DNA of 17,838 nucleotides from Promethearchaeota archaeon (GTDB lineage: Archaea; Asgardarchaeota; Lokiarchaeia; Sigyniarchaeales; SOKP01), in NCBI GenBank assembly GCA_048941015.1, contig JBHLNZ010000064.1:1-17838 (forward strand). Reading direction: 5' to 3'. Of the stretch, positions 185 to 17,838 are shown one piece after another. The notes below the pieces were generated by a model, which saw only the letters and a program-made list of their open reading frames with translations, made no database searches and was not told where the DNA came from. The translations under genes and the position numbers were made by a program. Position 1 is the stretch's first letter. The number at the start of each line of letters is the position of its first letter.

Positions 185-215
185 AAATTATCAAAATAGT
201 AATAAAAAAATCAGA

Positions 216-461
216 TTATTTTTCCCATGCTCTCATTACCATATGGGTATTTGAGGAAGAGATGCCTTTAATCAAATCGATTTTATTCGCAAAAATTTCG
301 AACAATTCCTCTGGAGTATCTACTTCGATTTCTGCTAATATATCATAATCTCCAGTCAAGGACATAACTTTTTTAATCTGAGGAATCTGTTTTAACTCTT
401 CAATTACAGGATTGATTACACTAATTCCTAATTTAAATAAACTAATTGCTTTAATGGTCAT
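216..461 (-). CDS. Stand-alone Lrp/AsnC ligand-binding (RAM) domain protein, no HTH
   Basis: 81 aa with beta-alpha-beta-beta-alpha-beta pattern and the LTGDYDIL motif, then 'IDLIKGISSSNT' (cf. I..I.GV..T.T). No N-terminal helix-turn-helix. Confidence 0.88.
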   Translation of the reverse strand: MTIKAISLFKLGISVINPVIEELKQIPQIKKVMSLTGDYDILAEIEVDTPEELFEIFANKIDLIKGISSSNTHMVMRAWEK

Positions 462-480
462 ATAGAATCATTTATTTATT

Positions 481-1800: not shown

Positions 1801-1996
1801 GAGAAGTTAACACTTTATTTCATAAATCTTAGTTATACTATTCTAGATTTTAAATAAAATGGAAATAATAAATTTTGTCAGTTTAGCTTATTTCAATTAC
1901 CCATTTTATTCCCTAATTATGATTTTAAAGTAAATAATTAAAGTTTCAGTGCATACTATGACTTATAATTAATTTAAAAATTTAATAGGAAAACTT

Positions 1997-3256
1997 ATGC
2001 CAAGTTCTAAAGAATTTATTGAAATGGATCTGGAATATTGTGCTCATAATTATCATCCTATACCTGTAGTTATTTCAAAAGCTAAAGGTGTTTGGGTATA
2101 TGATCCTGAAGGAAACAAGTATCTTGATTGCTTATCTGCCTACTCAAGTCAAAATACAGGACATTGTCATCCTGAAATTATAAAGGCATTAAAAGAGCAA
2201 GCTGATAAAGTAACTCTTACATCTAGAGCGTTTCATAATGATTTAATGGGTCCCTTCTTGAAAAAATTATGTGAAGTTGTTGGTCCTCATGTTAATGACC
2301 CTAATAATTCAGGAATTATGAGTATTCCGATGAATACAGGAACAGAGGCAGTCGAAACAGGACTTAAAGTAGCACGAGCATGGGGGTATATAAAGAAGAA
2401 GATACCAAAGGGAGAAGCTCATATTATCGCTTGTAGAGACAACTTCCATGGCAGATCAATAACAATAGTCGGAATAAGTACAGATATATCCGCTGTTCGA
2501 TATTATGGTAACTTTTCTCCCTATACACCAGGATTCAGTATAATTCCCTACGGAGATTCCAATGAACTTGAAAATATAATTCTGGAAATAGGACCAGAAA
2601 AAATTGCTGGCTTTATCTTTGAACCAATTCAAGGGGAAGCTGGTGTAAAGGTTCCTCCAGAGGGATTTATTAGAAAAGCAAGAGATATTTGTACAAAGTA
2701 TAATGTTCTAATGATTGCAGATGAAATTCAGACTGGTTTTGGAAGAACGGGCGCATTATTTGCATGTGATCATGAAGATGCAAAACCAGATATGCTTCTA
2801 CTTGGTAAAGCGCTTGGTGGAGGGGTATATCCTGTTTCAGCTGTTGTTACAAATAGAGAGGTTATTGGACCAGATGTAATAAAACCTGGGACTCATGGTA
2901 GTACCTTTGGAGGAAATCCTCTTGCTTCAGCAGTTGCCATGAAGTCATTAGATATCCATATAGATGACCATCTTGCGGAAAGAGCTAAAGAATTTGGAGC
3001 TTACTTTATGAATGGCCTTAAAAAAATCGCAGAAAAAGAAACAATTGTCCCAATAAAGGAAGTTCGAGGTAAAGGTTTGTTAATGGCAATTGAATTTGAA
3101 ACAGATGCTAGGCATATTGTTGAAATGCTAAAAGATAATGGTATTTTAGCTAAAGACACACACTCAACAACTATTAGATTCGCGCCACCCTTAATCGTTA
3201 CAAAAGATGAAATTGATTGGGCATTGAAGATTATTGAAAAAGTTCTTGTAAAGTAA
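1997..3256 (+). CDS. rocD: Ornithine--oxo-acid aminotransferase (class III PLP)
   Basis: AHNYHPIPVV, YLDCLSAYS, LTLTSRAF-like 'VTLTSRAFHND', EPIQGEAG, DEIQTGFGRTG, LGKALGGG (PLP Lys), PGTHGSTFGGNPL, LAKDTH..IRFAPPL. Confidence 0.95.
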   Translation: MPSSKEFIEMDLEYCAHNYHPIPVVISKAKGVWVYDPEGNKYLDCLSAYSSQNTGHCHPEIIKALKEQADKVTLTSRAFHNDLMGPFLKKLCEVVGPHVNDPNNSGIMSIPMNTGTEAVETGLKVARAWGYIKKKIPKGEAHIIACRDNFHGRSITIVGISTDISAVRYYGNFSPYTPGFSIIPYGDSNELENIILEIGPEKIAGFIFEPIQGEAGVKVPPEGFIRKARDICTKYNVLMIADEIQTGFGRTGALFACDHEDAKPDMLLLGKALGGGVYPVSAVVTNREVIGPDVIKPGTHGSTFGGNPLASAVAMKSLDIHIDDHLAERAKEFGAYFMNGLKKIAEKETIVPIKEVRGKGLLMAIEFETDARHIVEMLKDNGILAKDTHSTTIRFAPPLIVTKDEIDWALKIIEKVLVK

Positions 3257-3266
3257 GCAAATAAAT

Positions 3267-4184
3267 CTATTCCTTATTAATATAGAAGTGGGTACCTGCT
3301 TTTCCTTCTAATGCTTCTTTAATTTTTTCTATTGATGTTATAATTGCTTGCTCTCCACCCGCTTCAAGAAAGTTAATAACAGCTTCTACTTTTGGTTGCA
3401 TACTCCCAGCTGGAAAGTGGCCCTCCTTCAAATAGTTTTTAGCTTCTGATATCGAAATTCTATCTAGAGTTTTTTGATTTTGTTTTCCGTAATTGAGAGC
3501 AACCTTCTCGACATCAGTTGCTATTAATAAGATGTCTGCTCCAATTTGTTCTCCTAATTTAGAGCTAGCGAGATCTTTATCTATTACTGCTTCTACTCCA
3601 GATAATTGTTTCCCTTCTTTAATGACAGGTATACCCCCACCTCCGCAAGCGATAACTATCCAGCTCCCAAATTCCATTAGCTTTTTTATTTCACGCCATT
3701 GGTAGATTTTCTTAGGTTTAGGTGAAGGAACTACTCTACGCCATCCCTTAGCTGTTTCAACATATCCAGGTTTAGGTTTAGGATATGCTGGACCTATTGG
3801 TTTTGTTGGATTGTGAAAAGCTGGATCTTGAGGATCAACTTTTACATAGGTAAGAACAGTAAGAAAAAGCTTCTCCTCATCAAGCCCTATTCTCATTAAC
3901 TCTTCATCTAAAGTTGATTCAATCATATAACCGATTTGACCTTGAGTTTCAGCCACTAAAACCTGTAATGGTCTTTTTGAAACTTCAGCTGTAGCCTCTT
4001 GTTGCATAAGAAGCATCCCTACTTGAGGACCATTTCCATGGGTTATTACAATATTAAAATCTCGAGAGAGTTCTGCAATTTGGCTCAAGGGGACTTTTAA
4101 ATTTCTAAATTGTTCTTCTGTAGTTCCTTCTTCTCCAAATTTGATTAACGCATTTCCTCCGAGCGCAACAATTAAAGTTTTCAT
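3267..4184 (-). CDS. arcC: Carbamate kinase
   Basis: VALGGNAL, THGNGPQVG, ETQGQIGY, NPTKPIGP, WRRVVPSP, GGGGIPV, EAVIDKD, FPAGSMQPKVEA. Confidence 0.97.
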   Translation of the reverse strand: MKTLIVALGGNALIKFGEEGTTEEQFRNLKVPLSQIAELSRDFNIVITHGNGPQVGMLLMQQEATAEVSKRPLQVLVAETQGQIGYMIESTLDEELMRIGLDEEKLFLTVLTYVKVDPQDPAFHNPTKPIGPAYPKPKPGYVETAKGWRRVVPSPKPKKIYQWREIKKLMEFGSWIVIACGGGGIPVIKEGKQLSGVEAVIDKDLASSKLGEQIGADILLIATDVEKVALNYGKQNQKTLDRISISEAKNYLKEGHFPAGSMQPKVEAVINFLEAGGEQAIITSIEKIKEALEGKAGTHFYINKE

Positions 4185-4236
4185 TAAGCAATTCCTACAA
4201 ATTAGTCTAAATAAAAAATAATAATATTCTGCTTCT

Positions 4237-4253
4237 TATTTAAAATTTTTCTC
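4237..4253 (-). promoter_or_regulatory. Putative archaeal BRE-TATA promoter of arcC
   Basis: Minus strand reads GAGAAAAATTTTAAATA, about 52 nt upstream of the arcC ATG. AT-rich background lowers specificity. Confidence 0.4.
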
Positions 4254-4321
4254 ATAAAAAGAGCATTTTTAAATTTTTATTCTTATTTTAACCTAAAAAA
4301 AAGAATATCGAGTTTAAAATA

Positions 4322-5821
4322 CTATTTTTTAATATCTTTTATAACTAAACTTGATGCTATATTTTTAAAATTCTCTACGATTTCTTCATAATTTTCATCA
4401 TATTTAAACCACCAGAGATCCGGCTCTTTGTATTGATCGATATTGATATGTATTGGTCTTGTTACTTCAAGAAACCCAAATTTGCCGTGTGTTCTGCCTA
4501 TACCTGAGTTTTTTACACCTCCCCATGGAGTAGCTGCAAGCGCAAAAGTATACACTACTTCATTTATCATTACTGAACCCGTTTCTAATTCCTCAGCGAT
4601 CTTTTGACCAAATTCAATGTTATTTGTCCATACACTCGATGTTAATCCATATTGATTGCTATTGACCATCTCAATTACTTCTTCCTCAGTAGTAAATTTC
4701 AAGACAACTAGTACGGGACCAAATATCTCTTCCTGAACAACTCGCATATTGTTATCATTCACTTCTAGGATGGTAGGTTCATAAAAATAGCCATTATAAT
4801 TAGGATTTCTTCTTCCCCCGATTAAAACCTTTGCCCCTTCTTCAATACCCACTTTAACCATTTTATCCACCCAATTTAGTTGTTCTTCATTGATCATCGC
4901 GCCAACATCGATATTCGGTTCTGTAGGAATACCTTGCTTTAGCTTTTCGGTCAATTCGACCAACTTTTGTAGGAAATCTTTGTAAATCTCTTCATGGATA
5001 TATAATCGTTTAACAGATGCACATACTTGACCCGAGTTTGTAAAAGCACCCCATCGAGCTGCTAAAACTGCTCGTTCAAGATTTGCATCAGGAAATATTA
5101 TCATCGCAGATTTACCTCCAAGTTCAAGTGCTACTTCGGTAAGGGTATCAGCTCCGCGCTGCATTATTCTTTTTCCTGTTGCTGTGCTACCAGTAAAAAT
5201 TACTTTATCGGCATTATCAATTAGGGGATTTCCAATCTTGGAACCACTTCCAAATACCGTTTGAACCAAATTTTTTGGTAAATCGATAGCATCAAAGATT
5301 TCTTGAATTTTTTGTCCAACAAGCACTGTTTCTGATGAAGGCTTAAATATTACACTATTTCCCGCCATTAAGCTTTGTACAATCTGTTGAAATGGTATCG
5401 TAAATGGATAATTATAAGGGCCTATAACACATACCACTCCAATTGGTTTTCTCAAAATAATACTCCGTTTATCCAATGATTCATAAAAACCTAATGGAAT
5501 GGTTTCCTCTCTTCCCAGAATATCAATTACATTCGAATAATAATAAAAGGTGGAGTCCATAACACCATATACTTCGTTCACAAAAGCTTCTGACGGAGGT
5601 TTACCTACTTCCTTAGAAATTAATAATGAAATCTCATCAAATTGTTTTGAGATTATCTCATTCACTTTAACTACTCGTCTTACCCTTTCCTCAAGGGAAA
5701 TCTTAGCCCACTTTTTTTGAGCAAGACGAGCATCATTAAATATCTTATCAATGCTTTCTACTGGTGTTTCTTCCACTTCTCCATTTAACTCTAGAGTAGC
5801 GGGATTTATACTTTTAATCAT
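4322..5821 (-). CDS. NAD(P)-dependent aldehyde dehydrogenase (not canonical RocA/PutA-type; substrate uncertain)
   Basis: PYNYPF, GNSVIFKPS, FTGSTATGK, catalytic Glu in LELGGKS, catalytic Cys in NSGQVCAS, EEIFGPV, PWGGVKNSGIGR. Confidence 0.93.
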   Translation of the reverse strand: MIKSINPATLELNGEVEETPVESIDKIFNDARLAQKKWAKISLEERVRRVVKVNEIISKQFDEISLLISKEVGKPPSEAFVNEVYGVMDSTFYYYSNVIDILGREETIPLGFYESLDKRSIILRKPIGVVCVIGPYNYPFTIPFQQIVQSLMAGNSVIFKPSSETVLVGQKIQEIFDAIDLPKNLVQTVFGSGSKIGNPLIDNADKVIFTGSTATGKRIMQRGADTLTEVALELGGKSAMIIFPDANLERAVLAARWGAFTNSGQVCASVKRLYIHEEIYKDFLQKLVELTEKLKQGIPTEPNIDVGAMINEEQLNWVDKMVKVGIEEGAKVLIGGRRNPNYNGYFYEPTILEVNDNNMRVVQEEIFGPVLVVLKFTTEEEVIEMVNSNQYGLTSSVWTNNIEFGQKIAEELETGSVMINEVVYTFALAATPWGGVKNSGIGRTHGKFGFLEVTRPIHINIDQYKEPDLWWFKYDENYEEIVENFKNIASSLVIKDIKK

Positions 5822-5843
5822 TAATTTAACACGATTATAAAAC

Positions 5844-5859
5844 TATTTAAACATTTTTT
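5844..5859 (-). promoter_or_regulatory. Putative BRE-TATA promoter for a leaderless ALDH transcript
   Basis: Minus strand AAAAAATGTTTAAATA with the TATA ending about 22 nt before the ATG at 5821, the spacing expected for leaderless archaeal mRNA. Confidence 0.45.
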
Positions 5860-5955
5860 ACATGATTTATAATACAATTTTTTTAAATATGAGATTCACT
5901 TCAATTAAAAAGATGCTTTTTTGATGTCAGTGGAAGTATTAGTTGGAAAATTATT

Positions 5956-7521
5956 CTAAGAATTTTTCTTTTTATTTTTTTTTCTCTTTGCTTTTTCTTT
6001 CGGTTTCTCATATTCCTTAATAGGTTTTAAATAATCAATAGGTCTATCGCATACCCAACAAACATTTTCTAAGTTAGTTATTGCTCGAGCGCAATTTTCA
6101 CAATAAATAGTTCCACACTGACATATGTATGAGAATCTTAACACTTCACCCCGACATACTAAACAAATTTTAGTTTCTTTTGTAATAGCCACTTTCTCAT
6201 CTCTAACATAAAAAGTTAATATAGTAGGATTTCGAATCATTCCCTCAATTTGTTCATGCAAACGAGCTAACACAACACGATCAGCCATGGGTGCATCTTC
6301 TTCCTTTAATTTTTTCCATAAATGTTCATTTTTGAGTAAATCTTCATTTTCCTTAAAAATTTTTGTGGCCAATTTACTAGGGCCAAATCTATTCGCTACT
6401 TGTTGAGCTTGAATTAAGAAGCGTTTGGCCTTCTTTATGTTAAATGTTAAAAGATGTAATTTTCCTTGTAAGAGATATGTTTCGGCAGCAAAATAGTAAG
6501 TAAAAAAAGTTCCTGGTTGTTCAGCAAAGTTTAATAACATTCTAATATATGGATTTATCTCGTTTATTATATCTGTATCATTAGTTATACTTAATTCGGT
6601 AAGGAGTAGACTACAAAGATTTATTATAGCTTTGATATTGAAAGAAGGAGCGAAAGGAAGACGTTTCTTAACCATTTGTTTAAATAATTCTTCTGCTTTA
6701 ATTCGATCCCTTGCTCTCAAACTCGTTTTCAATATTAAAGCTTCATAATATTGATATATTAAATTTTTATATTTATTTTGATCTTTTTCTCTTAATTCAC
6801 TCATCTCTTGGAAATAAAATTTTGCATTAAGAACATCACCTTTAACAAGAAAAATTTCAATCAAAAGTCCCAGTAATATTAATAAATAAGGGGGATAATT
6901 AACTTCTATAGCACGTTTTGCATAGTATATAGCTTTATCATAATCTCCTAAAGCTTGATAATCTTCAGCAAGATTTAGAAGACAGGGAACTATCAAGCCT
7001 TTATCATCACTATCTTTTGCCAGTTCTAAAGCTTTTTGATTCCCATTAAGACCAAGACGAGGTCCTCCCGTAAGTGCTATACTAAGAGTATCTATTCTTA
7101 CCATGAAAGATTCTCTTTCTCTGAGATCTGTTTTTGATACTCTTTTAAGGTTCTCAAGCACTTTTTTTGCTTGTTTTAGTATAGTGTTAGCTCGAGTTAA
7201 ATCCCCTATCATTACAAGAGAATGTGCTTGAATCAACAAACCATCTAAATATGAAAATGAATCGCTCTGTTTTTGACTTTCTTCTAATACTTGGTTAACA
7301 TATTTTACAGCTTTTAAATATTCTGAAGATCTGTCAAAAATCATTGCTTTTAAAAGTTTAGAATAGAGTAAATCTTGAGAAGAATAGTCATCTCTTTTTT
7401 CTAATTCTAAAACAATTTGAGAGGCTTCCTTAATATATCCTTCTTCGATAAGTTGTTTTGCGTGGATCAATTCTTCTGGTAAATTTTTTTTCTCATTTTG
7501 TCTTATTTTTTTAGCTGTCAA
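5956..7521 (-). CDS. TPR-like helical repeat protein with C-terminal C4C4 RING-like zinc finger (paralogue 1)
   Basis: TPR-like segments such as 'LLNLAEDYQALGDYDKAIYYAKRAIE'. Eight Cys in C-x2-C-x10-C-x-C-x4-C-x2-C-x10-C-x2-C at 6049-6165. Lys-rich tail. TTG start preceded by AGGAGG. Confidence 0.85.
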   Translation of the reverse strand: MTAKKIRQNEKKNLPEELIHAKQLIEEGYIKEASQIVLELEKRDDYSSQDLLYSKLLKAMIFDRSSEYLKAVKYVNQVLEESQKQSDSFSYLDGLLIQAHSLVMIGDLTRANTILKQAKKVLENLKRVSKTDLRERESFMVRIDTLSIALTGGPRLGLNGNQKALELAKDSDDKGLIVPCLLNLAEDYQALGDYDKAIYYAKRAIEVNYPPYLLILLGLLIEIFLVKGDVLNAKFYFQEMSELREKDQNKYKNLIYQYYEALILKTSLRARDRIKAEELFKQMVKKRLPFAPSFNIKAIINLCSLLLTELSITNDTDIINEINPYIRMLLNFAEQPGTFFTYYFAAETYLLQGKLHLLTFNIKKAKRFLIQAQQVANRFGPSKLATKIFKENEDLLKNEHLWKKLKEEDAPMADRVVLARLHEQIEGMIRNPTILTFYVRDEKVAITKETKICLVCRGEVLRFSYICQCGTIYCENCARAITNLENVCWVCDRPIDYLKPIKEYEKPKEKAKRKKNKKKNS

Positions 7522-7530
7522 TTATAATAC

Positions 7531-7536
7531 CCTCCT
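7531..7536 (-). promoter_or_regulatory. Shine-Dalgarno site AGGAGG for paralogue 1
   Basis: Minus strand GGTAGGAGGGTATTATAA directly precedes the TTG at 7521. Confidence 0.6.
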
Positions 7537-7545
7537 ACCGATTAT

Positions 7546-9054
7546 TTACTTTTTTACTTTTTTCCCATTCTTCGCTCCTTCTTTTATTTCCTCATATTCC
7601 TTAATGGGTTTTGAATAATCAATACGTTTATCACACAACCAACAAACATTTTCTAAATCGGTTATTGCTTGAGCACATTTTTGACAATATATTGCTCCAC
7701 ACTCACATATATATGAGAATCTTAACACATCACCTCTACATACCAAGCAAACTTTTTTCTCTTTGGAAACTGCTACTTTTTCTTCAGTGAATTGAAACGT
7801 TATAACAATGCTTTTTTGTGTCATTCGTAGAATTAATTCATCTAATTGAGCTAATTCTATCCTATCAGCCATAGGTGCTTCAATTTCTTTTAATTTTTCC
7901 CATGAATCTGATTTTTGGAGTAAAATTTCAATTTCATCCGAAATCAACTCATCAAACTGTCTATATCCCATTCGTTCCGCTATTTTTTGAGCTTGAAATA
8001 ATAATCTTTTAGCTTTTGTAAAATTAAAAGTTAGTAGTGCCAATTTTGCTTGCAAGAGATAAATTTCAGAAGAAAACCAATAAGATTGTTCGCGATGAAT
8101 AAATTTTGATAATTGTATTGTGTAATGCTTTATTTCATTTATGATATCTAAATCGTTAGTTATGCGTAATTCTATAAGCATTAGGCTGCAAAGTTGTAGG
8201 AGGGATTTTATAACCATTTGGAAATCTTTTTTCTCTTCAATAATTTTTTTAAAAATTGCTTCTGCATCAACTCTACTTTTTGCCCTTAAACTTGTTTTTA
8301 GGATTAGAGCTTTATAGTATCGGTAGACTATACTATCTGTATCTCGTTCTGAAAATTCCATAAGATGTTCCATCTGAGAAAAATAATATTTTGCATTTTT
8401 AATATCACCTTTTCCAAGAACACAATCAATCAATGTTCCTAACCTCATTATTGAAAAAGGAGGATATTGAGTATCTACAGCACTTTTTGCGTAGAAAAGC
8501 GCTTTATCATAATCTCCTAAGTATTGGTATACTTCTCCGAGATTTATAAGGCTTGAGATAATCAGATGTTTATCTTCAGTTTCTTTTGCTAATTCATATG
8601 CTTTTTCATTTAACTTACGTGAAAGATGAAAATCTCCTTTTATAGCTTCGATACAAGCTTTGGTTCTAAGCATAAAAGATTCCCTTTCTTTAATATCTGC
8701 ATTTGGAATGTTTTTAAGTTTCTCAAATAATTCCTCAGCGTCTTTAATAATGGCTTCGCTCTGACTTAAATTTCCCGACATAATAAGTGCATATCCCTTA
8801 ATTAACAATGCATCAAAAATTAAGGATAGATTATCTAACTTCTTTCTTTGCTCTAATATTCGATTGGAACAATCAAGAGCATCGAAATATCGTGAGGATC
8901 TGTTATAGAGAGTTCCTTTGATTGAATAACATAAAAATAGTTCTTGATCAGAGAGTTGGCTCTTTTTCTCAAACTCTAAAATTAATTTTAAGGCTTCTTT
9001 AATCCTGCCATCTGCCATTAATTGTTTTGTTTGAACTAATTCATTTGATAACAA
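7546..9054 (-). CDS. TPR-like helical repeat protein with C-terminal C4C4 RING-like zinc finger (paralogue 2)
   Basis: Collinear with paralogue 1 (ERESFM.R, GDYDKA..YAK.A, YY.ALILKTSLRA, APMADR, CLVCRG.VLRFSYIC.CG.IYC..CA.AIT.LENVCW.C at 7633-7749). TTG start; an in-frame stop lies 11 codons upstream. Confidence 0.85.
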   Translation of the reverse strand: MLSNELVQTKQLMADGRIKEALKLILEFEKKSQLSDQELFLCYSIKGTLYNRSSRYFDALDCSNRILEQRKKLDNLSLIFDALLIKGYALIMSGNLSQSEAIIKDAEELFEKLKNIPNADIKERESFMLRTKACIEAIKGDFHLSRKLNEKAYELAKETEDKHLIISSLINLGEVYQYLGDYDKALFYAKSAVDTQYPPFSIMRLGTLIDCVLGKGDIKNAKYYFSQMEHLMEFSERDTDSIVYRYYKALILKTSLRAKSRVDAEAIFKKIIEEKKDFQMVIKSLLQLCSLMLIELRITNDLDIINEIKHYTIQLSKFIHREQSYWFSSEIYLLQAKLALLTFNFTKAKRLLFQAQKIAERMGYRQFDELISDEIEILLQKSDSWEKLKEIEAPMADRIELAQLDELILRMTQKSIVITFQFTEEKVAVSKEKKVCLVCRGDVLRFSYICECGAIYCQKCAQAITDLENVCWLCDKRIDYSKPIKEYEEIKEGAKNGKKVKK

Positions 9055-9195
9055 TTCTACTTCATATCGGTAATTTCTCTTATTTTATGTAAAATATACC
9101 TATAAATTTAATTAACTTATTTTGACTTAATTATCTAAATTTATTATGATAGATATTACCTCTATCTATAAAAATCTAATAAATCTAAACTAATA

Positions 9196-10128
9196 CTAAA
9201 ATTTATCACGTAAAAATAGCATTATTGCTTTTTGACCATGAAGGCGGTTTTCTGCTTCATCAAATACAACAGAATGCATTCCATCAATAACTTCTGCAGT
9301 TTGTTCATATCCTCGCATCGCTGGTAAACAATTCATAAAGATGGCATCTGATTTTGCATTTGCTAATATATTACTGGTAACTTGAAAAGGTATAAACGCT
9401 CTTTTTCTTTCTTCTTCTTGTTCGAGTGGAATACCATATGACATCCAAGAATCGGTATATAATATATCCGATTCATTCGCAGCTTCAAGAGCATTGTGAA
9501 CTACTTTTACTTCTGCACCAGAATTTTTGGATAGATTATTGACTTCGTTAAGCACTATCTTTTCAGGGGTATATTCTGGGCCTTTTGGACAAGCAACATC
9601 TAAGGTTAACCCAAACATAGCACTCATTCTCATGATATCATAGGTCACATTATTATGAGCATCTCCATAATAAGACATTTTTAAATTTTTTAATCGTCCT
9701 TTCTTTTCTTTAATTGTTAAAAAATCAGCTATAATTTGGCAAGGGTGAGCAAAATCATCTAACATATTTATTACCGGAACGTCAGAATATTTGGCAAGGT
9801 CCCATATATCTTGTCGTTTAAAAACTCGAGCTGCGATAAGATTAACATACCTAGAAGCCACCTTTGCAGTATCGCTAATGTTTTCTTTCTTTCCAAGAGG
9901 GGAATCTTTAATGGAATAAAAAATAGCATGACCACCTAATTGCTGCATTCCCGTTTCAAATGAAACACGTGTTCTTAAGGAAGGCTTTTCGAATATCATT
10001 AACAAAGTCTCATCTTCTAATGAATTCTTAAAATTTTTTGGGTTTTTTTTAATTTCAATTGCTTTTTCAATAACTTTCTCGCATTCTTCTTTTGAAAAAT
10101 CAGAGATTTTTGTTAAATGTCTAACCAT
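9196..10128 (-). CDS. argF: Ornithine carbamoyltransferase (probably catabolic, ArcB role)
   Basis: FEKPSLRTRVSFE (carbamoyl-phosphate site), LGGHA, HPCQ, GDAHNNV, YTDSWMSYG, FMNCLPAMRG, FDEAENRLH. Confidence 0.93.
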   Translation of the reverse strand: MVRHLTKISDFSKEECEKVIEKAIEIKKNPKNFKNSLEDETLLMIFEKPSLRTRVSFETGMQQLGGHAIFYSIKDSPLGKKENISDTAKVASRYVNLIAARVFKRQDIWDLAKYSDVPVINMLDDFAHPCQIIADFLTIKEKKGRLKNLKMSYYGDAHNNVTYDIMRMSAMFGLTLDVACPKGPEYTPEKIVLNEVNNLSKNSGAEVKVVHNALEAANESDILYTDSWMSYGIPLEQEEERKRAFIPFQVTSNILANAKSDAIFMNCLPAMRGYEQTAEVIDGMHSVVFDEAENRLHGQKAIMLFLRDKF

Positions 10129-10194
10129 TTTTATTCAATTCTAATTTTTTTATATCAGTTTCTTGAATTTATATCTAAATTTTCATTTAAATTT

Positions 10195-11373
10195 TTACTT
10201 TAGTTCTTCTTTTTGAGAAAAATCACGATTACTAGATAAGCTTGCTAATATTTCTTTATCTTTAGCAGATAATTTTTTAGTTATAATACGACTTATTAAT
10301 TCACCGAGACCTGGCCCAATCATAAATCCTTGCCCACATAAACCTACAGCATTAATATAACCTTCGATATTATCCTCTAATCCGATTATTGGATTACCAT
10401 CGGGTGTCATTGGATATAATCCTCTCCACGTTCTTCTAATTTTTATGTTTTGTAACCGTGGTAAAAGTGATATCATTCTTTTTGATATTTGTGGTAAATA
10501 AGAACTGGTTTCTTGACGATCCTTTCCTATAATACTCGGATTAGGAGTTAAACAGAAAATAATTTTTCCTTTTTTATTCTGATAAAAATAGTAATTTTTA
10601 GAATCTCCAAATTTGGGATCTTTAGAAGGCCGAATATCTACTACCATTGGTTCAAAAAATTTTTTAACTGGTTCAGTTATCCCCGCCTCATGAGATTCAG
10701 GTATTACCGGTAAATCGATACCTATCGTTTTTCCAATTTCTTTAGCGTTAGCACCAGCAGCATTAATAACATAATCCGCCTTGTATTTTTCTTTAGATGT
10801 TTTTACTCCTATAATTTTATTATTCTTAGTTAAAATATCAATAACTTCTTCTTTAAATTTATAATCTGTTCCATAATTTTTAGATTGTCGAAAAAAAGAG
10901 TGTAATGAAAGTAAGGGAGATGCGTTTCCATCTTCAGGACTGTAGGTTCCCCCTCTTAAGCCATTATCCTTAATTCCCGGGATTAATTCTCTAATCTTTT
11001 CGGAATCAACAAAATCTATATTCAACCCATATTTCTTTTGTTTTTTTACATTCTCTCGAAGAAAATTTTCATCTTTTTGGTTAAACGCTAGAAATGTATA
11101 ACCACCATCGATCCACCAAATGTCATCACCAAATTTCTCTTCCCAAGTAGAAAAAATTTCAATAGATCTTTGACATAACCATATCTTAGCTTTATGAGTA
11201 TGAGTTGCCCTTATCCCTCCTATTGCATGTTTATTATCACCTTGCGCAACGGATGGTAAGAAATCTATTACCAATGTTTTTAATCCATCATTCGCAGTTG
11301 CTAAAGCTGTTGGAATTCCTACACTTCCTGCTCCAATGATTATTACATCATATTCTACCAAATGTATTCTCAC
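10195..11373 (-). CDS. FAD-dependent amino acid oxidoreductase, DAO family (dye-linked proline dehydrogenase / sarcosine oxidase beta-like)
   Basis: YDVIIIGAGSVG Rossmann motif, GGIRA, VINAAG, RTWRGLYPMTPDGNPIIG, GLCGQGFMIGP. GTG start overlaps the upstream TGA stop (GTGA), although a TTG four codons later is an alternative start. Confidence 0.85.
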   Translation of the reverse strand: MRIHLVEYDVIIIGAGSVGIPTALATANDGLKTLVIDFLPSVAQGDNKHAIGGIRATHTHKAKIWLCQRSIEIFSTWEEKFGDDIWWIDGGYTFLAFNQKDENFLRENVKKQKKYGLNIDFVDSEKIRELIPGIKDNGLRGGTYSPEDGNASPLLSLHSFFRQSKNYGTDYKFKEEVIDILTKNNKIIGVKTSKEKYKADYVINAAGANAKEIGKTIGIDLPVIPESHEAGITEPVKKFFEPMVVDIRPSKDPKFGDSKNYYFYQNKKGKIIFCLTPNPSIIGKDRQETSSYLPQISKRMISLLPRLQNIKIRRTWRGLYPMTPDGNPIIGLEDNIEGYINAVGLCGQGFMIGPGLGELISRIITKKLSAKDKEILASLSSNRDFSQKEELK

Positions 11374-13448
11374 TTCCTCTCTTCTTGTACCCCTGCAAAA
11401 AGTCCCATAGATACTTCCATAAATAAGGGGCGCATAGTATGTGGAGTGATCTCTTCAATTTGTACACCTTCTTCTTGGAAAATCCGAAATATTAAGGGAA
11501 TACAAGTTTTTCCACCACATGCTCCCATTCCAACTCTAGTTAAAGCCTTGAGTTCATTAAAATCCCTTACTCCACAACGAATCCACTTTCTAACTTCTCC
11601 AACAGAAACTCTTTCACACCTGCAAATAATCACATCATCTTCAGTGTAGGTTTTCTGGTAAGTATCAATTGATTCAGTATAAGTGGTTTTTTTTAGTCTT
11701 ACTGCTACTGCTTTCTTTGCTATCTCTTTAGGTAATTTAATAGTAATTAATTGTGTTTTGGGGAATTCTTTAAGTATTCGTGCTCGATAAATTTCGAATT
11801 CTCCTAATTCTTGATCATTACTTACAACAAATACTTTTTTTCCTTTCACCAATTTTTCAAAACTTAATTCAAGAGGAAAGGTAACTAGTGGATTTTTATT
11901 ATCTTTTCGATAATCTACCAAAGTAACAGCTAAACCGGGACAAACTGCTACACATTTACCACATCCCAAACATTCTTTATCATCATTAAAGAAAGGTAAC
12001 TGAGAAATTAATCCATCAACAGTTTCAATTTGTTCTTGTGGGCAAACTGATGTGCATGGATTACAAGGGATTTCTTGATTACAATGAAAAAGGGGAAAAA
12101 TCCCTTCTTCTTTTTCTAAGTTAATAGACTGTGTTGGTAAAGGAGGTTTAGCTTTCATAAGATCCGCAAATTCTTGGAGATCTTCAATACTCTCGGAAAA
12201 TTTCACACCCTTTTCTCTAAGGATTTTAAATGCTTCAACTTTCCCAGTAAAGATTGCAGCAGAAGCTTCAGCGATTTCTTGAGCATCACCTGCAATCCAA
12301 ACTTTCATTCCAAATTGGGTTGCTTTATGGTAAAATTCATCAACTCGATTCAAACCTACTGCAATTAAGATTGTATCACATGCAAAGGTCTTTCCTGTTT
12401 CTGAAGCAATATCTCCATTATCATTAAGTTTCCCAATAGTAATTGATTTAACCTTCTCATCTCCATTTGCCGAAATAATAGTATGATTAGTAAAAATTGG
12501 AACTCCTAAACGTCTAAGTTTATCTTCATGAACCTTATAGCCTCCACAATAAGGTAGTGCTTCAATTAAACCAATTACATCGATACCTGCTTGAATTGCG
12601 TGATAACCTGCTATTAGTCCAACATTGCCACCTCCAACTATAAAAACTTTATCTGCTGCTCTTACCAAATCTCTATTAACAAGAGTTTGAAATGCACCTG
12701 CTCCATAAACACCAGGGAGAGTATTACCAGGAAAAACTAACATTTTTTCTCTCGCACCTGTAGCTATTAGGAGATATTGAGGCTTGACTAAAACATATTC
12801 ATTACCATTTTTCAATATTCCAATAATTTTATCTCTAAAAACCGCTAAAGCAGTACTATTTAGCCAAACTTTTACATTTTCTAATTGTTTTACATTTTGT
12901 CCCAAAATTTCTGCGATATGAATACCTCGTTTCCCTGCATATACGTCCTCTTCAGAACCAAAAAATTTATGCGTTTGAAGTACTAATTTTCCTCCTAGTC
13001 TATCTTTATCATCAATTAAAATAACATCTAAACCATGTTCACCTAAAATTTTAGTAGCCGAAAGTCCTGCTGGCCCAGCACCGATCACCAATGCTTCAGT
13101 TTCTATTATTTTTGGATCCTTTAGTTTAATTTCTTTATCATTTGAGGGTAGCTCAGGTAAGCCATTACAGCTCTCAATAATCATCCCTTCCTTAAGAGGA
13201 GTCATACAACCTTTTACAGGAATTCCGTTTACAATTACATTACATTGAGAACACTGTCCATTCGCGCAAAAAATTCCCTGAGGACTCCCATCCTTCTCAT
13301 GATGACCAAATATTTTAATCTTATTTAGAAAAAGCGCGGAAGATATAACCATCCCTTCAAACCCAGTCAATTCTTTTCCATCAAAGCTAAATTTAATCTT
13401 ATTTCTTTGGGGTATTTCTAAAATGGGATGTTTGGTTATATGTTCCAT
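11370..13448 (-). CDS. Multidomain Fe-S flavoprotein: [2Fe-2S] + FAD/NAD(P) oxidoreductase + 2x[4Fe-4S] + BFD-like domain (proline dehydrogenase / sarcosine oxidase alpha-like fusion)
   Basis: CANGQCSQC...C, VIGAGPAG, ATGARE..FPGNTLPGV, IVGGGNVG, CNQEIPCNPCTSVCP, CLGCGKCVAVCP, ICRCERV...TRVGMGACGGKTC. Confidence 0.88.
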   Translation of the reverse strand: MEHITKHPILEIPQRNKIKFSFDGKELTGFEGMVISSALFLNKIKIFGHHEKDGSPQGIFCANGQCSQCNVIVNGIPVKGCMTPLKEGMIIESCNGLPELPSNDKEIKLKDPKIIETEALVIGAGPAGLSATKILGEHGLDVILIDDKDRLGGKLVLQTHKFFGSEEDVYAGKRGIHIAEILGQNVKQLENVKVWLNSTALAVFRDKIIGILKNGNEYVLVKPQYLLIATGAREKMLVFPGNTLPGVYGAGAFQTLVNRDLVRAADKVFIVGGGNVGLIAGYHAIQAGIDVIGLIEALPYCGGYKVHEDKLRRLGVPIFTNHTIISANGDEKVKSITIGKLNDNGDIASETGKTFACDTILIAVGLNRVDEFYHKATQFGMKVWIAGDAQEIAEASAAIFTGKVEAFKILREKGVKFSESIEDLQEFADLMKAKPPLPTQSINLEKEEGIFPLFHCNQEIPCNPCTSVCPQEQIETVDGLISQLPFFNDDKECLGCGKCVAVCPGLAVTLVDYRKDNKNPLVTFPLELSFEKLVKGKKVFVVSNDQELGEFEIYRARILKEFPKTQLITIKLPKEIAKKAVAVRLKKTTYTESIDTYQKTYTEDDVIICRCERVSVGEVRKWIRCGVRDFNELKALTRVGMGACGGKTCIPLIFRIFQEEGVQIEEITPHTMRPLFMEVSMGLFAGVQEERK

Positions 13449-13484
13449 TTAGAATCTTATTATAATATAATTTAAGTTTTAATA

Positions 13485-15665
13485 TTATTGATATGGCTTA
13501 ATAAACGCAATTACATCATCATAATCAATACCTAATTCTTTAATCTTTTTAAGGGTAGGGCATCCTTTTTGGTTCCATCCCCTTTCTTTATATACTGCGT
13601 CTTGAAGTTTAGAATATTGTTCCTCTCGATATTCTCTTAAAAGTTTGACTTTTTCTTCAACATTTTTTCCAGAAATTTTGACTCCCAGCTCTTTTAATTG
13701 AGTATCATACCTTTCGGCCCGACTTTCATATTCTAATGGTGTAACTGGACCCATCGCTCGATAAGGAAAATTTGAATCATGTTCACGAAGACCCTTCCCT
13801 TGTCTTATATTAAAAATTCTCTGGAAGTTATACACAACTTCGGACATCATAATAAGGTCATCGGGAGTGGATTGCCGTCCTGTAACAGCTGAAAAATACT
13901 TTGCATACCATTCAACGTGATCAGGAACTTTAGCTCTAATTAACTCACCAGTTTCTGGATCTTTAATGGGATAATCTGCTTGAGAAGTTGGTTGAATATC
14001 ATTCCATGGAAGTTTACATAAACCATTTAACCCAAACCAAGTACGCCATAATGGAAACCATCGTAATGCTCTTGCTTTATCCTCAAAAGTGGGGATTGAA
14101 TTTCGGATAACATCCTCAAATATAAGCCATGCCTCATCATGTTGTGGCCCCTTATTAGTAAATCCATACCCTCCCTGCTGAGCTAAAGATTCCTTCGTAA
14201 CATATTCTGAAAATTCTAATCCTTTATGCTCCATTCCAATATCTTGGAGGAATTGAGGATCTGCACCATGCTTTTCAGCGAAAATCTTTTTCATTTCTTT
14301 TATGCCTTTACCAACAATAGCCCCAAATCCTTCGCCTCTCCTTATTTGATGAATAAGCTCGACCGCAGCCTCAGCATTACCGAATTTAAGTTCAAGACCC
14401 CCAGTTATTTCTTTATTCAAAATACCTGTTTCATAACATTCCATTACGAAAGCAATGCCCGTTCCCAAACTAATTGTATCTAAACCATACGTATCACAAT
14501 AAAAATTAGTTTCAAGAACCCATTTTGGATCCCATACACCCCAATTAGAGCCACATCCTGCTATTGTTTCATATTCGGGACCATCAACTATTACTTTTTG
14601 TCCTTTAAATGGTCCCGTTAATACCTCGTGGCCTTCTGAATAATGGGAACAACTAACAGTACATCCTAACCAACAACCATCAGCTCCTTCTCGACCTGAA
14701 TAAATCTTTCTCATTTCTTCTCTGCTATAAGGAATATCTTTTCCATCAATTTCCCTATGTCTTCCAAACCGGAAATTTTCAGTTGGAAGTAAATCAGTAA
14801 CATTCATAATATCAGGAAGATGACCTGTCCCTACTCGGCGCATTTCATTTTGAATGGGATCAAGTTTCATTATTTCTTGGCTGTGTGCCTTTCCAAGTTC
14901 CCTTGCTGTTTCTAAGTCCTCTGGATTATTTGAACTCACCGTTACCTTTGGAGAACGACATACTAAAGCTTTTATTTTTTTATCGGCGAAAACAGTTCCA
15001 ATTCCGCCTCGACCAGCTTGCTTATATGATGCCCAATTACGACCCTTAACATACCATGAAAAATTAAGTATACCCCATTTAGAATGTTTAGCAGCGGGAC
15101 CAGTACTCACTACTGAAATGCGTTGTTTCTCGCCTTCTTCTTTGGCATATTTTTCAGTTAGCTCTTGTGTAAGTAAATGCGAATATTCTGAATATTTATT
15201 TGAATTTTCTGTAGACTCTATTTGAACATATCCTTTTACTCCGTTTATATATATAATAACCTCTTTATCTGATTTGCCTTGTATTTCAATTGCATCAAAA
15301 CCAGAAAATTTTAAATAAGGGCCGAAATAACCACCTACGTTGCTATCAACAATAATCCCGGTCAGGGGAGAAACAGTTGTGACTATAGATTTTCCAGAAC
15401 CAGGATAAAAAATATTTCCTCCTAATGGTCCTGAAGAAATACATATCTCATTTTCTGGATCATTCCATTTTACTATTCTATCTTTTGGAAGAGCATTCCA
15501 CATTAACCATAAATCAAATCCTTTTCCACCAATAAATTTCTGTTTCATTTCATGGATAACAGGTTTAATGAGAATCTCATTTTTTGTTAAATTTATATAT
15601 AAAATTTGATTAGCGTAACCTTTTTCAACTTCAGGAATTTGATATTCTTTCCTAGCAAGGATCAA
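13485..15665 (-). CDS. Tungsten-pterin aldehyde:ferredoxin oxidoreductase (AOR/WOR family)
   Basis: FIGGKG, SPLTG..DSNVGGYFGPYLKFSGFDAI, AGRGGIGTVF..KKIKA, Fe-S Cys in GCWLGCTVSC and GLCKLPW, GPEYET, CDTYGLDTISLG, YKERGW...G.PT...KELGI. Confidence 0.93.
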   Translation of the reverse strand: MILARKEYQIPEVEKGYANQILYINLTKNEILIKPVIHEMKQKFIGGKGFDLWLMWNALPKDRIVKWNDPENEICISSGPLGGNIFYPGSGKSIVTTVSPLTGIIVDSNVGGYFGPYLKFSGFDAIEIQGKSDKEVIIYINGVKGYVQIESTENSNKYSEYSHLLTQELTEKYAKEEGEKQRISVVSTGPAAKHSKWGILNFSWYVKGRNWASYKQAGRGGIGTVFADKKIKALVCRSPKVTVSSNNPEDLETARELGKAHSQEIMKLDPIQNEMRRVGTGHLPDIMNVTDLLPTENFRFGRHREIDGKDIPYSREEMRKIYSGREGADGCWLGCTVSCSHYSEGHEVLTGPFKGQKVIVDGPEYETIAGCGSNWGVWDPKWVLETNFYCDTYGLDTISLGTGIAFVMECYETGILNKEITGGLELKFGNAEAAVELIHQIRRGEGFGAIVGKGIKEMKKIFAEKHGADPQFLQDIGMEHKGLEFSEYVTKESLAQQGGYGFTNKGPQHDEAWLIFEDVIRNSIPTFEDKARALRWFPLWRTWFGLNGLCKLPWNDIQPTSQADYPIKDPETGELIRAKVPDHVEWYAKYFSAVTGRQSTPDDLIMMSEVVYNFQRIFNIRQGKGLREHDSNFPYRAMGPVTPLEYESRAERYDTQLKELGVKISGKNVEEKVKLLREYREEQYSKLQDAVYKERGWNQKGCPTLKKIKELGIDYDDVIAFIKPYQ

Positions 15666-15671
15666 ATAATA

Positions 15672-15676
15672 TCACC
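15672..15676 (-). promoter_or_regulatory. Archaeal Shine-Dalgarno GGTGA supporting the TTG start of AOR
   Basis: Minus strand TTGGTGATATTAT then TTG at 15665 (6 nt spacing). Confidence 0.6.
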
Positions 15677-15771
15677 AATATACAAAAATTTGTTTAAATA
15701 ATATAAAACAATCCTATAGAGGGTGATTTTGATATAACTATATGCCCTCAATTTTTTAAAAAATTTGCTAT

Positions 15772-17109
15772 TTATTTTAAGAATTTATGAGTAAAATCAT
15801 CTAAAACGTCTTCAATAGTTGGACTCTTTACAGCTTCAATATCATACCTAACGGTAACAATAGGCTTATTTACTTTAACCAACTTCTCCAAATCAATTGG
15901 GCTTCCGTTAACAATAATATCGCATTTTGCTTTATTTAAGGTTTTTTCCATATCTTCAATTTGTTCATCACTATAACCCATTGCAGGAACAATCTCAGTA
16001 ATATGTGGGAATTCCTCGAATAAATCTTTCATAGTTCCCACAAGATAAGGTTTAGGGTCCACTATTTTTGCTCCTGCATTTTTTGCTGCAACATAACCCG
16101 CTCCGATTGCCATGCCTCCATGGGTCAATGTTGGACCGTCCTCAACCACAATAACCTTCTTTCCCTTCATCTTAAGAGGGTTATCAGCAGTAACTGTAGA
16201 ATTTGTATACACTCTCACTGCATTAGGATTCAATTCGTCTAAATCCCTCTCAACAATCTGTACATCTTCTGGTTTAGCACTATTCATTTTATTGATAACA
16301 AATACATCTGCATATCGAGCATTGACTTCTCCTGGATGATATTCTATTTCATGTCCTGGTCGTAGGGGATCTACAACTACAAATAGTAAATCTGTTATAT
16401 AGAAAGATATTTCATTATTGCCACCATCAAAAACAATTACATCTGCTTCTTTTTCCGCTTCTCTTATGATTTTCTCATAGTCTACTCCAGAATAAATAAC
16501 CAATCCTTGTCTAATATAAGGCTCGTATTCTTCTCTTTCTTCTATTGTACAGTCATATTTATCCAAATCATCGTAGGTTTCAAATCTCATAACATTTTGT
16601 TGAATCAAATCACCATAAGGCATTGGTTCTCTTATAGCTACGACTTTAATACCTTTTCCCTTTAAATATCGATATACTGCTCTCGAAACTTGACTTTTTC
16701 CACAGCCAGTTCTAACTGCACATACTGCTATGACAGGCTTGTTGGACTTTATCTGAGTAAATCGCCCCGAAATGAGACGATAATTTGCTCCCGCAGACAA
16801 TGCTCTGCTGGCTTTATGCATCACTTCTTCATGGGAAACATCACTGTAAGCAAATACAACTTCATCAACTTGGTGTAATTTGATTGCTTGCTCAAGTGCC
16901 TCTTCGGGAATCATAGGGATTCCTTTAGGATATAGTTTTCCAGCTAGTTCTGCAGGGAATCTCCGCTCTTCTTCCTCTACTGTTCCTACATTCTGTTCTC
17001 CTGCGATAGTAAACGCTAAAACCTCATATTCTTCATTATCTTTGAAAACGGTATTGAAAACATGAAAATCCATTCCTAGGGCGCCGATGATAATAACTTT
17101 TTTTTTCAT
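15772..17109 (-). CDS. arcE: Arginine synthetase (ArcE)-family P-loop protein, usually auto-annotated as GTPase or cyclic 2,3-diphosphoglycerate synthetase-like
   Basis: DFH.FN, PAELAGKLYPKGIP, FAYSDVSHEEVMHKAS, P-loop AVRTGCGKS, PMPYGDL, CTIEEREEYEPY, DGGNNE, HPGEVN, VEDGPTLTHGGM, PAMGYS. These match my recollection of the Thermococcus kodakarensis arginine synthetase family. Clustered with OTC and carbamate kinase. Confidence 0.82.
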   Translation of the reverse strand: MKKKVIIIGALGMDFHVFNTVFKDNEEYEVLAFTIAGEQNVGTVEEEERRFPAELAGKLYPKGIPMIPEEALEQAIKLHQVDEVVFAYSDVSHEEVMHKASRALSAGANYRLISGRFTQIKSNKPVIAVCAVRTGCGKSQVSRAVYRYLKGKGIKVVAIREPMPYGDLIQQNVMRFETYDDLDKYDCTIEEREEYEPYIRQGLVIYSGVDYEKIIREAEKEADVIVFDGGNNEISFYITDLLFVVVDPLRPGHEIEYHPGEVNARYADVFVINKMNSAKPEDVQIVERDLDELNPNAVRVYTNSTVTADNPLKMKGKKVIVVEDGPTLTHGGMAIGAGYVAAKNAGAKIVDPKPYLVGTMKDLFEEFPHITEIVPAMGYSDEQIEDMEKTLNKAKCDIIVNGSPIDLEKLVKVNKPIVTVRYDIEAVKSPTIEDVLDDFTHKFLK

Positions 17110-17436: not shown

Positions 17437-17838
17437 TTAATTTAGTTGATTTATCCATTTTTCTACTTCATCTCGTGCGTTTTTTACGCTTCCACCGCGA
17501 AAGGAAATTGCGTTTTTAATTTCTGCTTTAGGGCAGAGTTGTGCAATATCCTTCAAACTTCTTCCTAGTCCGCTACCCTCATGTGTACAAAAAGGAATTA
17601 TTGTTTTATTTGAAAAATCATAAGATTCTAAGAAAGTACGAATTGCCATAGGCGTAGTTCCCCACCAATTAGGGTAACCTAAAAATATAACGTTATATAC
17701 TTCCATATCCACAATATGATCTGAAAGTTCTGGTCTAGCATTATTTTTTAATTCTTGTTTTGCCACTTTAGTCGTTTCCTCATAACCTTTTGGATATTGT
17801 TTTACTGTATCAATATGAAACAAATCTCCTCTGACAAT
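17437..17838 (-). CDS. Flavodoxin (Flavodoxin_4-like), 5' truncated by the window edge
   Basis: Frame is open to the window end (IVRGDLFHIDTVKQYP...). Motifs ARPEL, IFLGYPNWWGT.P, PFCTHEGSG.G. The ORF track's start at 17823 is an internal Leu codon. Confidence 0.88.
   Translation of the reverse strand: MVRGDLFHIDTVKQYPKGYEETTKVAKQELKNNARPELSDHIVDMEVYNVIFLGYPNWWGTTPMAIRTFLESYDFSNKTIIPFCTHEGSGLGRSLKDIAQLCPKAEIKNAISFRGGSVKNARDEVEKWINQLN

Follow-up and report, generated by a model that had tools for sequence, protein, structure and literature searches.

What would an anaerobic archaeon do with a tungsten-type oxidoreductase encoded in the middle of its genes for arginine breakdown? The question is raised by a 17,838-nucleotide stretch of DNA (here called the window) that makes up the whole of a 17.8-kb contig, JBHLNZ010000064.1, from a Promethearchaeota archaeon of the Lokiarchaeia (assembly GCA_048941015.1, 95% complete; contig G000:C144 in our numbering, in which G denotes a genome, L a fetched locus, f an Asgard family and g a genus). 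Genes for an arginine synthetase (ArcE)-family protein, ornithine carbamoyltransferase (OTC), carbamate kinase (CK, ArcC) and ornithine aminotransferase (OAT, RocD) lie there together with genes for a long protein of the tungsten-type aldehyde:ferredoxin oxidoreductase (AOR) family, a fused Fe-S flavoprotein (FeS) and a DAO-family dehydrogenase (DAO). We put at roughly 50% the probability that this is a catabolic cluster for arginine, and probably for proline, in which the AOR oxidises glutamate-5-semialdehyde (GSA) to glutamate, with substrates, electron carriers and direction of flux all predicted from sequence.

Gene order and proposed pathway

Window genes were called from a listing of open reading frames (ORFs) together with Pfam and NCBIfam scans. 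Those that carry the argument are as follows.

15772..17109, minus strand: ArcE-family protein, arginine synthetase candidate (homologue names, weak cDPG synthetase match, invariant columns)
13485..15665, minus strand: long tungsten-type AOR family protein, 726 aa (AFOR_N + AFOR_C)
11370..13448, minus strand: fused Fe-S flavoprotein, alpha-like, 692 aa (Fer2_4 + Pyr_redox_2 + 4Fe-4S dicluster + Fer2_BFD)
10195..11373, minus strand: proline-dehydrogenase-like FAD dehydrogenase of the DAO family, beta-like catalytic subunit (PF01266)
9196..10128, minus strand: OTC (ArcB/ArgF; TIGR00658, 356 bits, cut-off 281)
3267..4184, minus strand: CK (ArcC; TIGR00746, 375 bits, cut-off 358)
1997..3256, plus strand: ornithine-oxo-acid aminotransferase (RocD/OAT; TIGR01885, 520 bits, cut-off 378)

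The genes, coordinates and gene order given in an earlier note on this DNA were all recovered by the ORF listing and family scans. Thus, the first five genes, which that note had described as consecutive and co-oriented with gaps of at most 106 bp, were separated by 106, 36, -4 and 66 bp (arcE/AOR/FeS/DAO/OTC), the two-gene interruption beyond which an aldehyde dehydrogenase (ALDH) gene and arcC follow consisted of two genes for TPR proteins, and rocD was found to converge on arcC from the opposite strand, with 10 bp between the two genes. NCBIfam equivalog cut-offs were passed by the OTC, CK and OAT proteins and by none of the DAO, FeS and ALDH proteins. The G+C content of the window was 24-38%.

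In the proposed pathway, ArcE would convert arginine, ADP and phosphate to citrulline, ammonia and ATP, OTC would phosphorolyse citrulline to ornithine and carbamoyl phosphate, and CK would obtain a second ATP from the latter. RocD would transaminate ornithine to GSA, in equilibrium with 1-pyrroline-5-carboxylate (P5C), and the DAO/Fe-S flavoprotein pair would feed the same GSA/P5C pool from proline. The AOR would then oxidise GSA to glutamate and pass low-potential electrons to ferredoxin or flavodoxin, while the NAD(P)-type ALDH of G000 might act as a second, accessory aldehyde oxidiser. The same chemistry (proline to P5C/GSA to glutamate, and ornithine to GSA by way of RocD) is known from canonical PutA, or from proline dehydrogenase (PDH) with RocA; the difference is that the second step would here be performed by a tungsten AOR and not by an NAD-dependent, ALDH4-type P5C dehydrogenase (P5CDH). 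Of the complete anaerobic route from arginine and proline to glutamate that had been claimed for this locus, the core genes are in place, whereas the window ALDH is not of the P5CDH type and both substrates and direction are predictions. The ArcE/OTC/CK/RocD part of the scheme is much firmer than the assignments of AOR and of the PDH-like pair.

The arginine core

No Pfam or NCBIfam model matched the ArcE-like protein, and a match to cyclic 2,3-diphosphoglycerate (cDPG) synthetase 9sxb was weak (E 1.5e-4). Its homologues carry names such as 'predicted GTPase' or 'cDPG synthase', and it is with such names that the ArcE family was described by Michimori et al. (2024; PMC11032458), who also noted homologues in Lokiarchaeota, some of them near arcB or arcC. 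The family is highly conserved: the window protein was 46-57% identical to members from other Asgard families and retained every invariant column of the family. Homologues of more than 50% identity were found in Desulfurococcales, Caldiserica, Calditrichaeota, Planctomycetota and Chloroflexota (80 loci, no Thermococcus among them), all of which are among the taxa listed for the ArcE family in PMC11032458. In two further genomes, G038 and G032, arcE lies directly upstream of OTC and arcC. As judged through the family description, the window protein very likely belongs to the arginine synthetase family.

The model for arginine deiminase (arcA; PF02274) had no match in G000, and the presence of OTC and CK with no deiminase found is the profile of the arginine synthetase pathway. 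The claimed core of ArcE, OTC, CK and RocD is therefore present, and none of arcA, argG and argH was found in G000. In having an ArcE-family protein, OTC and CK with no deiminase found, the window resembles the pathway of Thermococcus kodakarensis (ArcE TK2200, ArcB TK0871, ArcC TK2158; Michimori et al., 2024, PMC11032458; 2026, PMC13260591). It differs in that the three genes are clustered here with those for OAT, AOR, the PDH-like Fe-S flavoenzyme and an EamA-RAM transporter, and sometimes for ALDH and flavodoxin, whereas the arcE, arcB and arcC locus-tag numbers of T. kodakarensis are widely separated and ornithine is described there as a precursor of proline.

The Fe-S flavoprotein and DAO pair

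The best match of the DAO protein in the PDB was 1Y56_B, the beta subunit of PDH1 from Pyrococcus horikoshii, at an E value of 8e-48, with the second-best match far behind at 8e-22. The FeS protein was best matched by the corresponding alpha subunit (1Y56_A, PH1363; E 4e-22), over residues 15-273 only, i.e., its N-terminal 260 residues. Like PH1363 and PH1364, the two window genes are adjacent; they overlap by 4 bp, and the pair was adjacent in all loci examined. The makeup of a PDH1-type pair (a DAO-family beta subunit next to a PH1363-related alpha subunit) was thus found, with an alpha match that is partial and with additional Fe-S domains. Compared with PH1363, the alpha-like subunit is a protein of 692 aa with an extra 4Fe-4S dicluster and a BFD-type 2Fe-2S domain, so that all electron-transfer modules appear to be fused in it. 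It also has FAD/NAD(P) Rossmann domains. Cysteines of the four predicted clusters (two 2Fe-2S and two 4Fe-4S) were invariant in 20 orthologues.

These features are those of a proline-dehydrogenase-like enzyme, in which the modules of an archaeal dye-linked L-proline dehydrogenase would be fused and for which L-proline is the predicted substrate. The prediction of this substrate draws on gene context, namely rocD in the Asgard cluster and ProC and OCD next to a bacterial orthologue. Every NCBIfam match of the DAO protein fell below its cut-off, and tblastn of this protein against plasmids returned only generically named matches at 26-32% identity, which were uninformative with respect to an opine oxidase as the alternative. 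Enzymes of the HcnABC, opine dehydrogenase and hydroxyproline dehydrogenase types have this architecture in common with the pair.

The AOR protein

The closest solved relatives of the AOR were 1AOR (E 4e-52) and FOR, 1B25 (E 2e-47). Membership in the AOR/WOR family was indicated by AFOR_N and AFOR_C domains, by the cysteines for a 4Fe-4S cluster and by a second shell that, in alignment with Pyrococcus furiosus AOR and FOR, keeps the equivalents of Thr243, Glu313, Tyr427 and His448; these Thr, Glu, Tyr and His residues are tied to aldehyde oxidation in a 2025 review (PMC12096430). The first three cluster cysteines are spaced C-x3-C-x3-C, and the fourth ligand is probably the invariant Cys550. 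Thus, the window AOR has the two-domain fold family, second-shell residues and 4Fe-4S cysteines of P. furiosus AOR (1AOR) and FOR (1B25/1B4N) and differs from them in its weak similarity (181 and 165 bits), a length greater by about 120 residues and its C-x3-C-x3-C spacing. Unlike them it also falls in a clade of its own, uncharacterised and common to Asgard archaea and Desulfobacterota.

There is precedent for a C5 semialdehyde as substrate, because the lowest Km of FOR is that for glutaric dialdehyde, and glutarate is also bound by this enzyme (PMC12096430). AorABC of Aromatoleum aromaticum and the WOR1 complexes provide precedent for an AOR working with adjacently encoded Fe-S and FAD/NAD(P) subunits (PMC12096430), although the AOR of the window adjoins a DAO-type dehydrogenase alpha subunit and not a polyferredoxin/FAD pair.

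Conservation of the cluster in Asgard archaea

ArcE, AOR, FeS and RocD were searched for in 41 relatives and in 201 genomes of the phylum, and all window proteins were then run by tblastn against the fetched loci. In at least 28 genomes, which represent five genera, a single contig carries arcE, AOR and FeS within about 10 kb. Convergent rocD and the order arcE-AOR-FeS-DAO-OTC-arcC were noted in genera g1, g12, g14 and g15 of the window's family and in g5 of a sister family, and further clusters were split by contig ends (G006, G014 and G017). Wherever the contig reached far enough, rocD was found at its place in the cluster; it was co-oriented with its neighbours in G038 and G032. This arrangement is more than chance. 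Clusters without arcE had been considered for G017 and G223 and were rejected, since pieces of flavodoxin and Zn-ADH genes, located where the contigs end, showed these clusters to be split or to run off the contig.

AOR and the FeS-DAO pair were also associated with each other. AOR adjoins the pair in family f1 and in genus g5, both were gained and lost jointly within g1 and g12, and an AOR orthologue was present in 43 of 45 FeS-positive Asgard genomes, a figure that includes dispersed cases and is inflated by relatedness. Together with the renewed pairing of AOR and FeS-DAO beside ProC and OCD genes in Desulfobacterota, described below, these results uphold the tie between AOR and the PDH-like pair proposed in the earlier note. 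The proposed link of both to arcE, OTC and rocD held in part: it was seen in five genera and at least 28 genomes, but these amount to one family plus one genus, and the genes were dispersed elsewhere. Failure to co-occur with arcE, OTC and rocD in other genomes, which the note regarded as damaging to its proposal, was accordingly noted in part outside one family.

Informative in another way were G038 and G032 (both complete, same order), in which arcE, OTC, arcC and rocD form a compact co-oriented operon. No ALDH-superfamily gene (PF00171) was found in either genome, although the same search, as a control, matched in all 14 reference genomes. Likewise, proA, proC and the carbamoyl phosphate synthetase (CPS) genes were not found in these genomes, while rocD, the AOR orthologue and FeS-DAO were kept. 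Since no ALDH, proA or proC was found, some non-canonical enzyme must handle the product of RocD in these two archaea.

AOR loci in bacteria

A homologue of the long AOR was present in 27 of 251 Desulfobacterota genomes, at 55-61% identity in 12 of these, from which nine loci were fetched. AOR orthologues (56-59% identity) adjoined FeS-DAO in three different arrangements. In L161 a GntR regulator gene and AOR are divergent from FeS-DAO, whereas the order in L167 is FeS-DAO-(MazE/PIN)-AOR, co-oriented throughout. In L166 (G359, 1-11142) FeS and DAO are followed by genes for ProC, OCD and LivHMGF-LivK, an amino-acid ABC transporter, with AOR convergent; judged by these genes, L166 looks like an island for ornithine/proline uptake and catabolism around the AOR + FeS-DAO module. 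L164 is apparently syntenic with L166. ProC lies 85 bp downstream of AOR in L163. In L154, which is not one of the nine Desulfobacterota loci, a long AOR of 45% identity lies 22 bp after the gene for an OAT-like aminotransferase (TIGR01885, 357 bits, cut-off 378).

RocD, ProC, OCD and proline dehydrogenase share P5C/GSA, which is the sole aldehyde that they produce, and for this reason GSA would be the most economical substrate for the AOR. The Desulfobacterota neighbourhoods thus provide independent support for a P5C/GSA role. Replacement of ProA by AOR in bacteria was also considered and was rejected, as canonical proA was found in all five of the Desulfobacterota genomes with the AOR module that were tested; for the same reason the module looks catabolic in these bacteria and not like a ProA substitute. 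Four representative contigs with long AORs were either too short to be informative or had no amino-acid genes beside AOR.

Evidence against a dedicated role in GSA oxidation

Several findings weigh against the proposed role of the AOR and against the pathway built around it. In G038 and G032 the FeS-DAO pair and AOR each lie about 85-240 kb from the arginine operon. Most genes of the AOR clade stand alone, and no conserved neighbour was detected when the surroundings of such solitary Asgard orthologues were searched. In family f9 AOR was present in 34 of 43 genomes and both rocD and FeS in 0 of 43, while AORs of 70-74% identity occur in g13, g16 and g18, where arcE, rocD and FeS were not found. 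Such stand-alone genes, of the type found in f9, g13, g16 and g18, branch between two in-cluster groups in the AOR tree, and the clade is therefore not exclusively tied to the pathway. Only one or two evolutionary events are probably behind the joint cluster, and related genomes are not independent samples of it. In addition, eight AOR-family matches were noted in G000, so that specificity cannot be read from family membership.

Among the nine Desulfobacterota loci, four had unrelated neighbours, and one bacterial relative of 52% identity sits with a polyferredoxin gene and no amino-acid genes. The ArcE assignment is indirect, being made through the family and not through TK2200 itself, and the extra ALDH of the cluster could be the real GSA dehydrogenase. 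Finally, oxidation of proline is, by our own estimate, energetically hard for a strict anaerobe, because of which the PDH-like pair may run reductively.

Direction of the pathway and alternative explanations

A reductive pair would fit a dismutation of P5C, in which arginine would be fermented to ornithine and GSA and the AOR would oxidise part of the GSA while the Fe-S/DAO pair, acting as electron sink, reduced P5C to proline via flavodoxin or ferredoxin and redox balance was reached without hydrogen. Beyond the unfavourable energetics of proline oxidation in anaerobes, this explanation draws on the joint gain and loss of AOR and FeS-DAO in g1 and g12, on the four predicted Fe-S clusters of the alpha subunit, which suit electron uptake from a ferredoxin-type carrier, and on flavodoxin genes within the cluster. 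ProC, moreover, was not found in G018, nor in G038 and G032. Characterised relatives of DAO (PDH1, sarcosine and glycine oxidases) are, however, known as oxidative enzymes, and proline is already made by ProC and OCD, which accompany FeS-DAO in L166. We consider dismutation unlikely.

The presence of a carbamate kinase gene in the operon and the direction in which ArcE yields ATP are in keeping with catabolism and argue against the opposite view that the cluster is biosynthetic or bidirectional. According to this view the AOR would use reduced ferredoxin or flavodoxin to turn glutamate into GSA, RocD would form ornithine, OTC would form citrulline with carbamoyl phosphate from CPS or CK, ArcE would make arginine with ATP, and P5C would be converted to proline, the whole replacing ProBA, ArgBCDE and ArgGH. 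AORs are able to reduce acids, but the reaction demands a very low potential. The gene content of G000 would nonetheless allow such a pathway: argG, argC and proA were not found and argH gave no match above cut-off, yet genes for ProC, an OCD-family protein and the large subunit of CPS were present, as were two ALDHs. Adjacency of AOR and ProC in L163 points the same way, and ArcE is reversible and sustains the synthesis of arginine in vivo (PMC11032458). Set against this, CPS was not found in G038 and G032, and canonical proA was retained in each of the five Desulfobacterota genomes with the AOR module. We regard a biosynthetic cluster as improbable.

The earlier note had pointed to the genome for arcA, argG, argH and the rocA and pro genes, and had suggested that arginine could also be made from proline or glutamate without ArgG/ArgH. 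As to the first, arcA, argG, argH and proA were not found in G000, ProC was, and the window ALDH is not of the P5CDH type; as to the second, the failure to find proA and argC and the presence of CPS agree with it, while direction is a matter of prediction. Elsewhere in the genus, G008 (contamination 9%) carries argG, argC and argH together at C40:247032-254514, unlike G000, G018, G038 and G032, which represents either real variation or contamination.

A third explanation, that the AOR is a general aldehyde scavenger and that FeS-DAO has some other secondary amine as its substrate (for example sarcosine or an N-methyl amino acid, with formaldehyde for a FOR-like AOR, or an opine), their place in the cluster being an accident of lineage or a mark of shared regulation only, would accommodate the widespread and mostly solitary AOR clade, found also in genomes in which no rocD, FeS-DAO or arcE was found, the dispersed modules of G032, G038, G025 and G036, the architecture in common with enzymes of the HcnABC, opine dehydrogenase and hydroxyproline dehydrogenase types and the DAO matches below NCBIfam cut-offs, but it is doubtful in view of a link to P5C-related genes (rocD, OAT-like, ProC, OCD) that recurs in two domains, of a DAO protein to which PDH1 beta is a far closer relative than the PDB entries for sarcosine and glycine oxidases and of a gene order kept across five genera.

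Oxidation of GSA by the AOR thus remains the reading that we prefer. A bolder version of it, to which we give little credence, is that the long AOR, the Fe-S/DAO pair and a flavodoxin or ferredoxin might form an anaerobic, tungsten-dependent analogue of PutA, in which the high-potential proline/P5C couple would be joined to the very low-potential GSA/glutamate couple by confurcation or by direct hand-over. Such a system might possibly also run in reverse and give an ATP-independent conversion of glutamate to GSA, and from there, with no need for ProBA, ArgBCDE or ArgGH, access to proline and ornithine and, by way of ArcE, to arginine.

Relation to published pathways

In the literature searched, neither ArcE nor P5C was linked anywhere to AOR or to proline dehydrogenase, and Asgard archaea were mentioned only as having ArcE homologues; the belief that the coupling of ArcE, AOR and PDH in one locus had not been described thus stands. 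The two-ATP route from arginine is already known, and it is a function for the uncharacterised AOR clade that would plausibly be new. If the AOR does oxidise GSA, the tungsten AOR family would gain a new physiological role, and P5CDH a ferredoxin- or flavodoxin-linked substitute. Such an activity would explain how Loki-type archaea in which no ALDH-superfamily gene was found complete the breakdown of arginine, ornithine and proline, and it would provide low-potential electrons for syntrophic formation of hydrogen or formate on top of two ATP. The result also supplies an initial physiological context for an AOR clade common to Asgard archaea and sulfate-reducing bacteria, and for the fused form of archaeal proline dehydrogenase. 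The proposal is testable, since these genes are also present, in dispersed form, in cultured relatives.

Variable genes of the cluster and neighbouring genes

The remaining genes of the window are as follows.

17437..17838, minus strand: flavodoxin (Flavodoxin_4), cut by the contig end (PF12682, E 1e-25)
7546..9054, minus strand: TPR protein, first of two paralogues (TPR_12)
5956..7521, minus strand: TPR protein, second of two paralogues (TPR_12)
4322..5821, minus strand: ALDH, NAD(P)-type aldehyde dehydrogenase (PF00171)
216..1800, minus strand: EamA/DMT transporter with a fused Lrp/AsnC RAM domain, and a free RAM protein of 81 aa (PF00892 + PF01037)

The best NCBIfam match of the ALDH was to succinate-semialdehyde dehydrogenase, below cut-off, and P5CDH models were clearly failed (TIGR01237, 283 against a cut-off of 660; NF002852, 296 against 648). 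Its best PDB match was 3IWK, an aminoaldehyde dehydrogenase, and the nearest solved enzymes were aminoaldehyde, succinate-semialdehyde and betaine-aldehyde dehydrogenases. The protein is accordingly of predicted aminoaldehyde/succinate-semialdehyde dehydrogenase-like and not P5CDH type, and appears to be a variable accessory of the cluster. ALDH was found between OTC and arcC only in G000, L150 and L151 and was absent from most clusters, while in L152 an orthologue of 79% identity lies beside EF-2 instead. An ALDH unique to G000 had been considered and was rejected, the same position being occupied in L150 and L151.

The two TPR genes are paralogues of 50% identity. Elsewhere one copy was noted in the closest relative, G104 (L144 11002-14017), and TPR genes were not found in the other fetched cluster loci or among the called genes of L150 and L151. 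The pair is a recent lineage-specific insertion and probably not part of the pathway. After the TPR gene of G104 come an arcC fragment of 49 residues and a gene for an LRR protein. The junction between OTC and arcC is a hot spot for insertion.

The Flavodoxin_4 ORF is co-oriented with arcE, 327 bp upstream of it, and an orthologue occupies the same place in G010 (L003). None was found upstream of arcE in G104, for which reason the association with the cluster is weak, and Flavodoxin_4 is a possible low-potential electron carrier for the cluster. A Flavodoxin_5 gene (187 aa) was noted between arcE and AOR in seven genomes (G012, G019, G021, G002, G008, G017 and G223), and a Flavodoxin_5-like gene after rocD in G038. 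One or two Zn-ADH/MDR genes lie between flavodoxin and AOR in G019 (L005 2172-3122), G017 (L015 11873-12496) and G223 (L036 12522-14461). A co-oriented Amidohydro_3 gene (540-545 aa) was noted between DAO and OTC in four genomes (L005 8774-10411, L002 8458-10092, L010 1417-3039 and L036 4057-5679).

The EamA-RAM module is divergent from rocD. EamA-RAM and the free RAM protein were also found beside rocD in G024, G008, G017, G016, G104 and L151, and they are probably the amino-acid transport and sensing unit of the cluster. Directly after the EamA-RAM genes of L151 (13697-17503; GCA_004524355.1) are aminomutase genes (OAM_dimer/B12-binding, Lys-AminoMut_A and radical-SAM LAM_C), a lysine or ornithine fermentation module that adjoins the arginine cluster.

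Outside the cluster genera, parts of the system were noted in other settings. Thus, the modules were dispersed in G025 and G036 as well as in G038 and G032, arcE was found alone in 20 loci from other Asgard families, and an AOR orthologue was present in 96 of 201 genomes, which belong to six families. Near the stand-alone AORs of f9 (L025, L026, L038 and L040) there is a gene for a divergent 165-aa Fer4_8 dicluster protein, and in three of these four loci one for a protein of about 313 aa, both of which may be electron-transfer partners of AOR. In family f7 the gene for a small GTPase of the Arf family lies directly downstream of AOR and is co-oriented with it (L024 8304-8867, L029 11339-11893 and L039 8229-8789).

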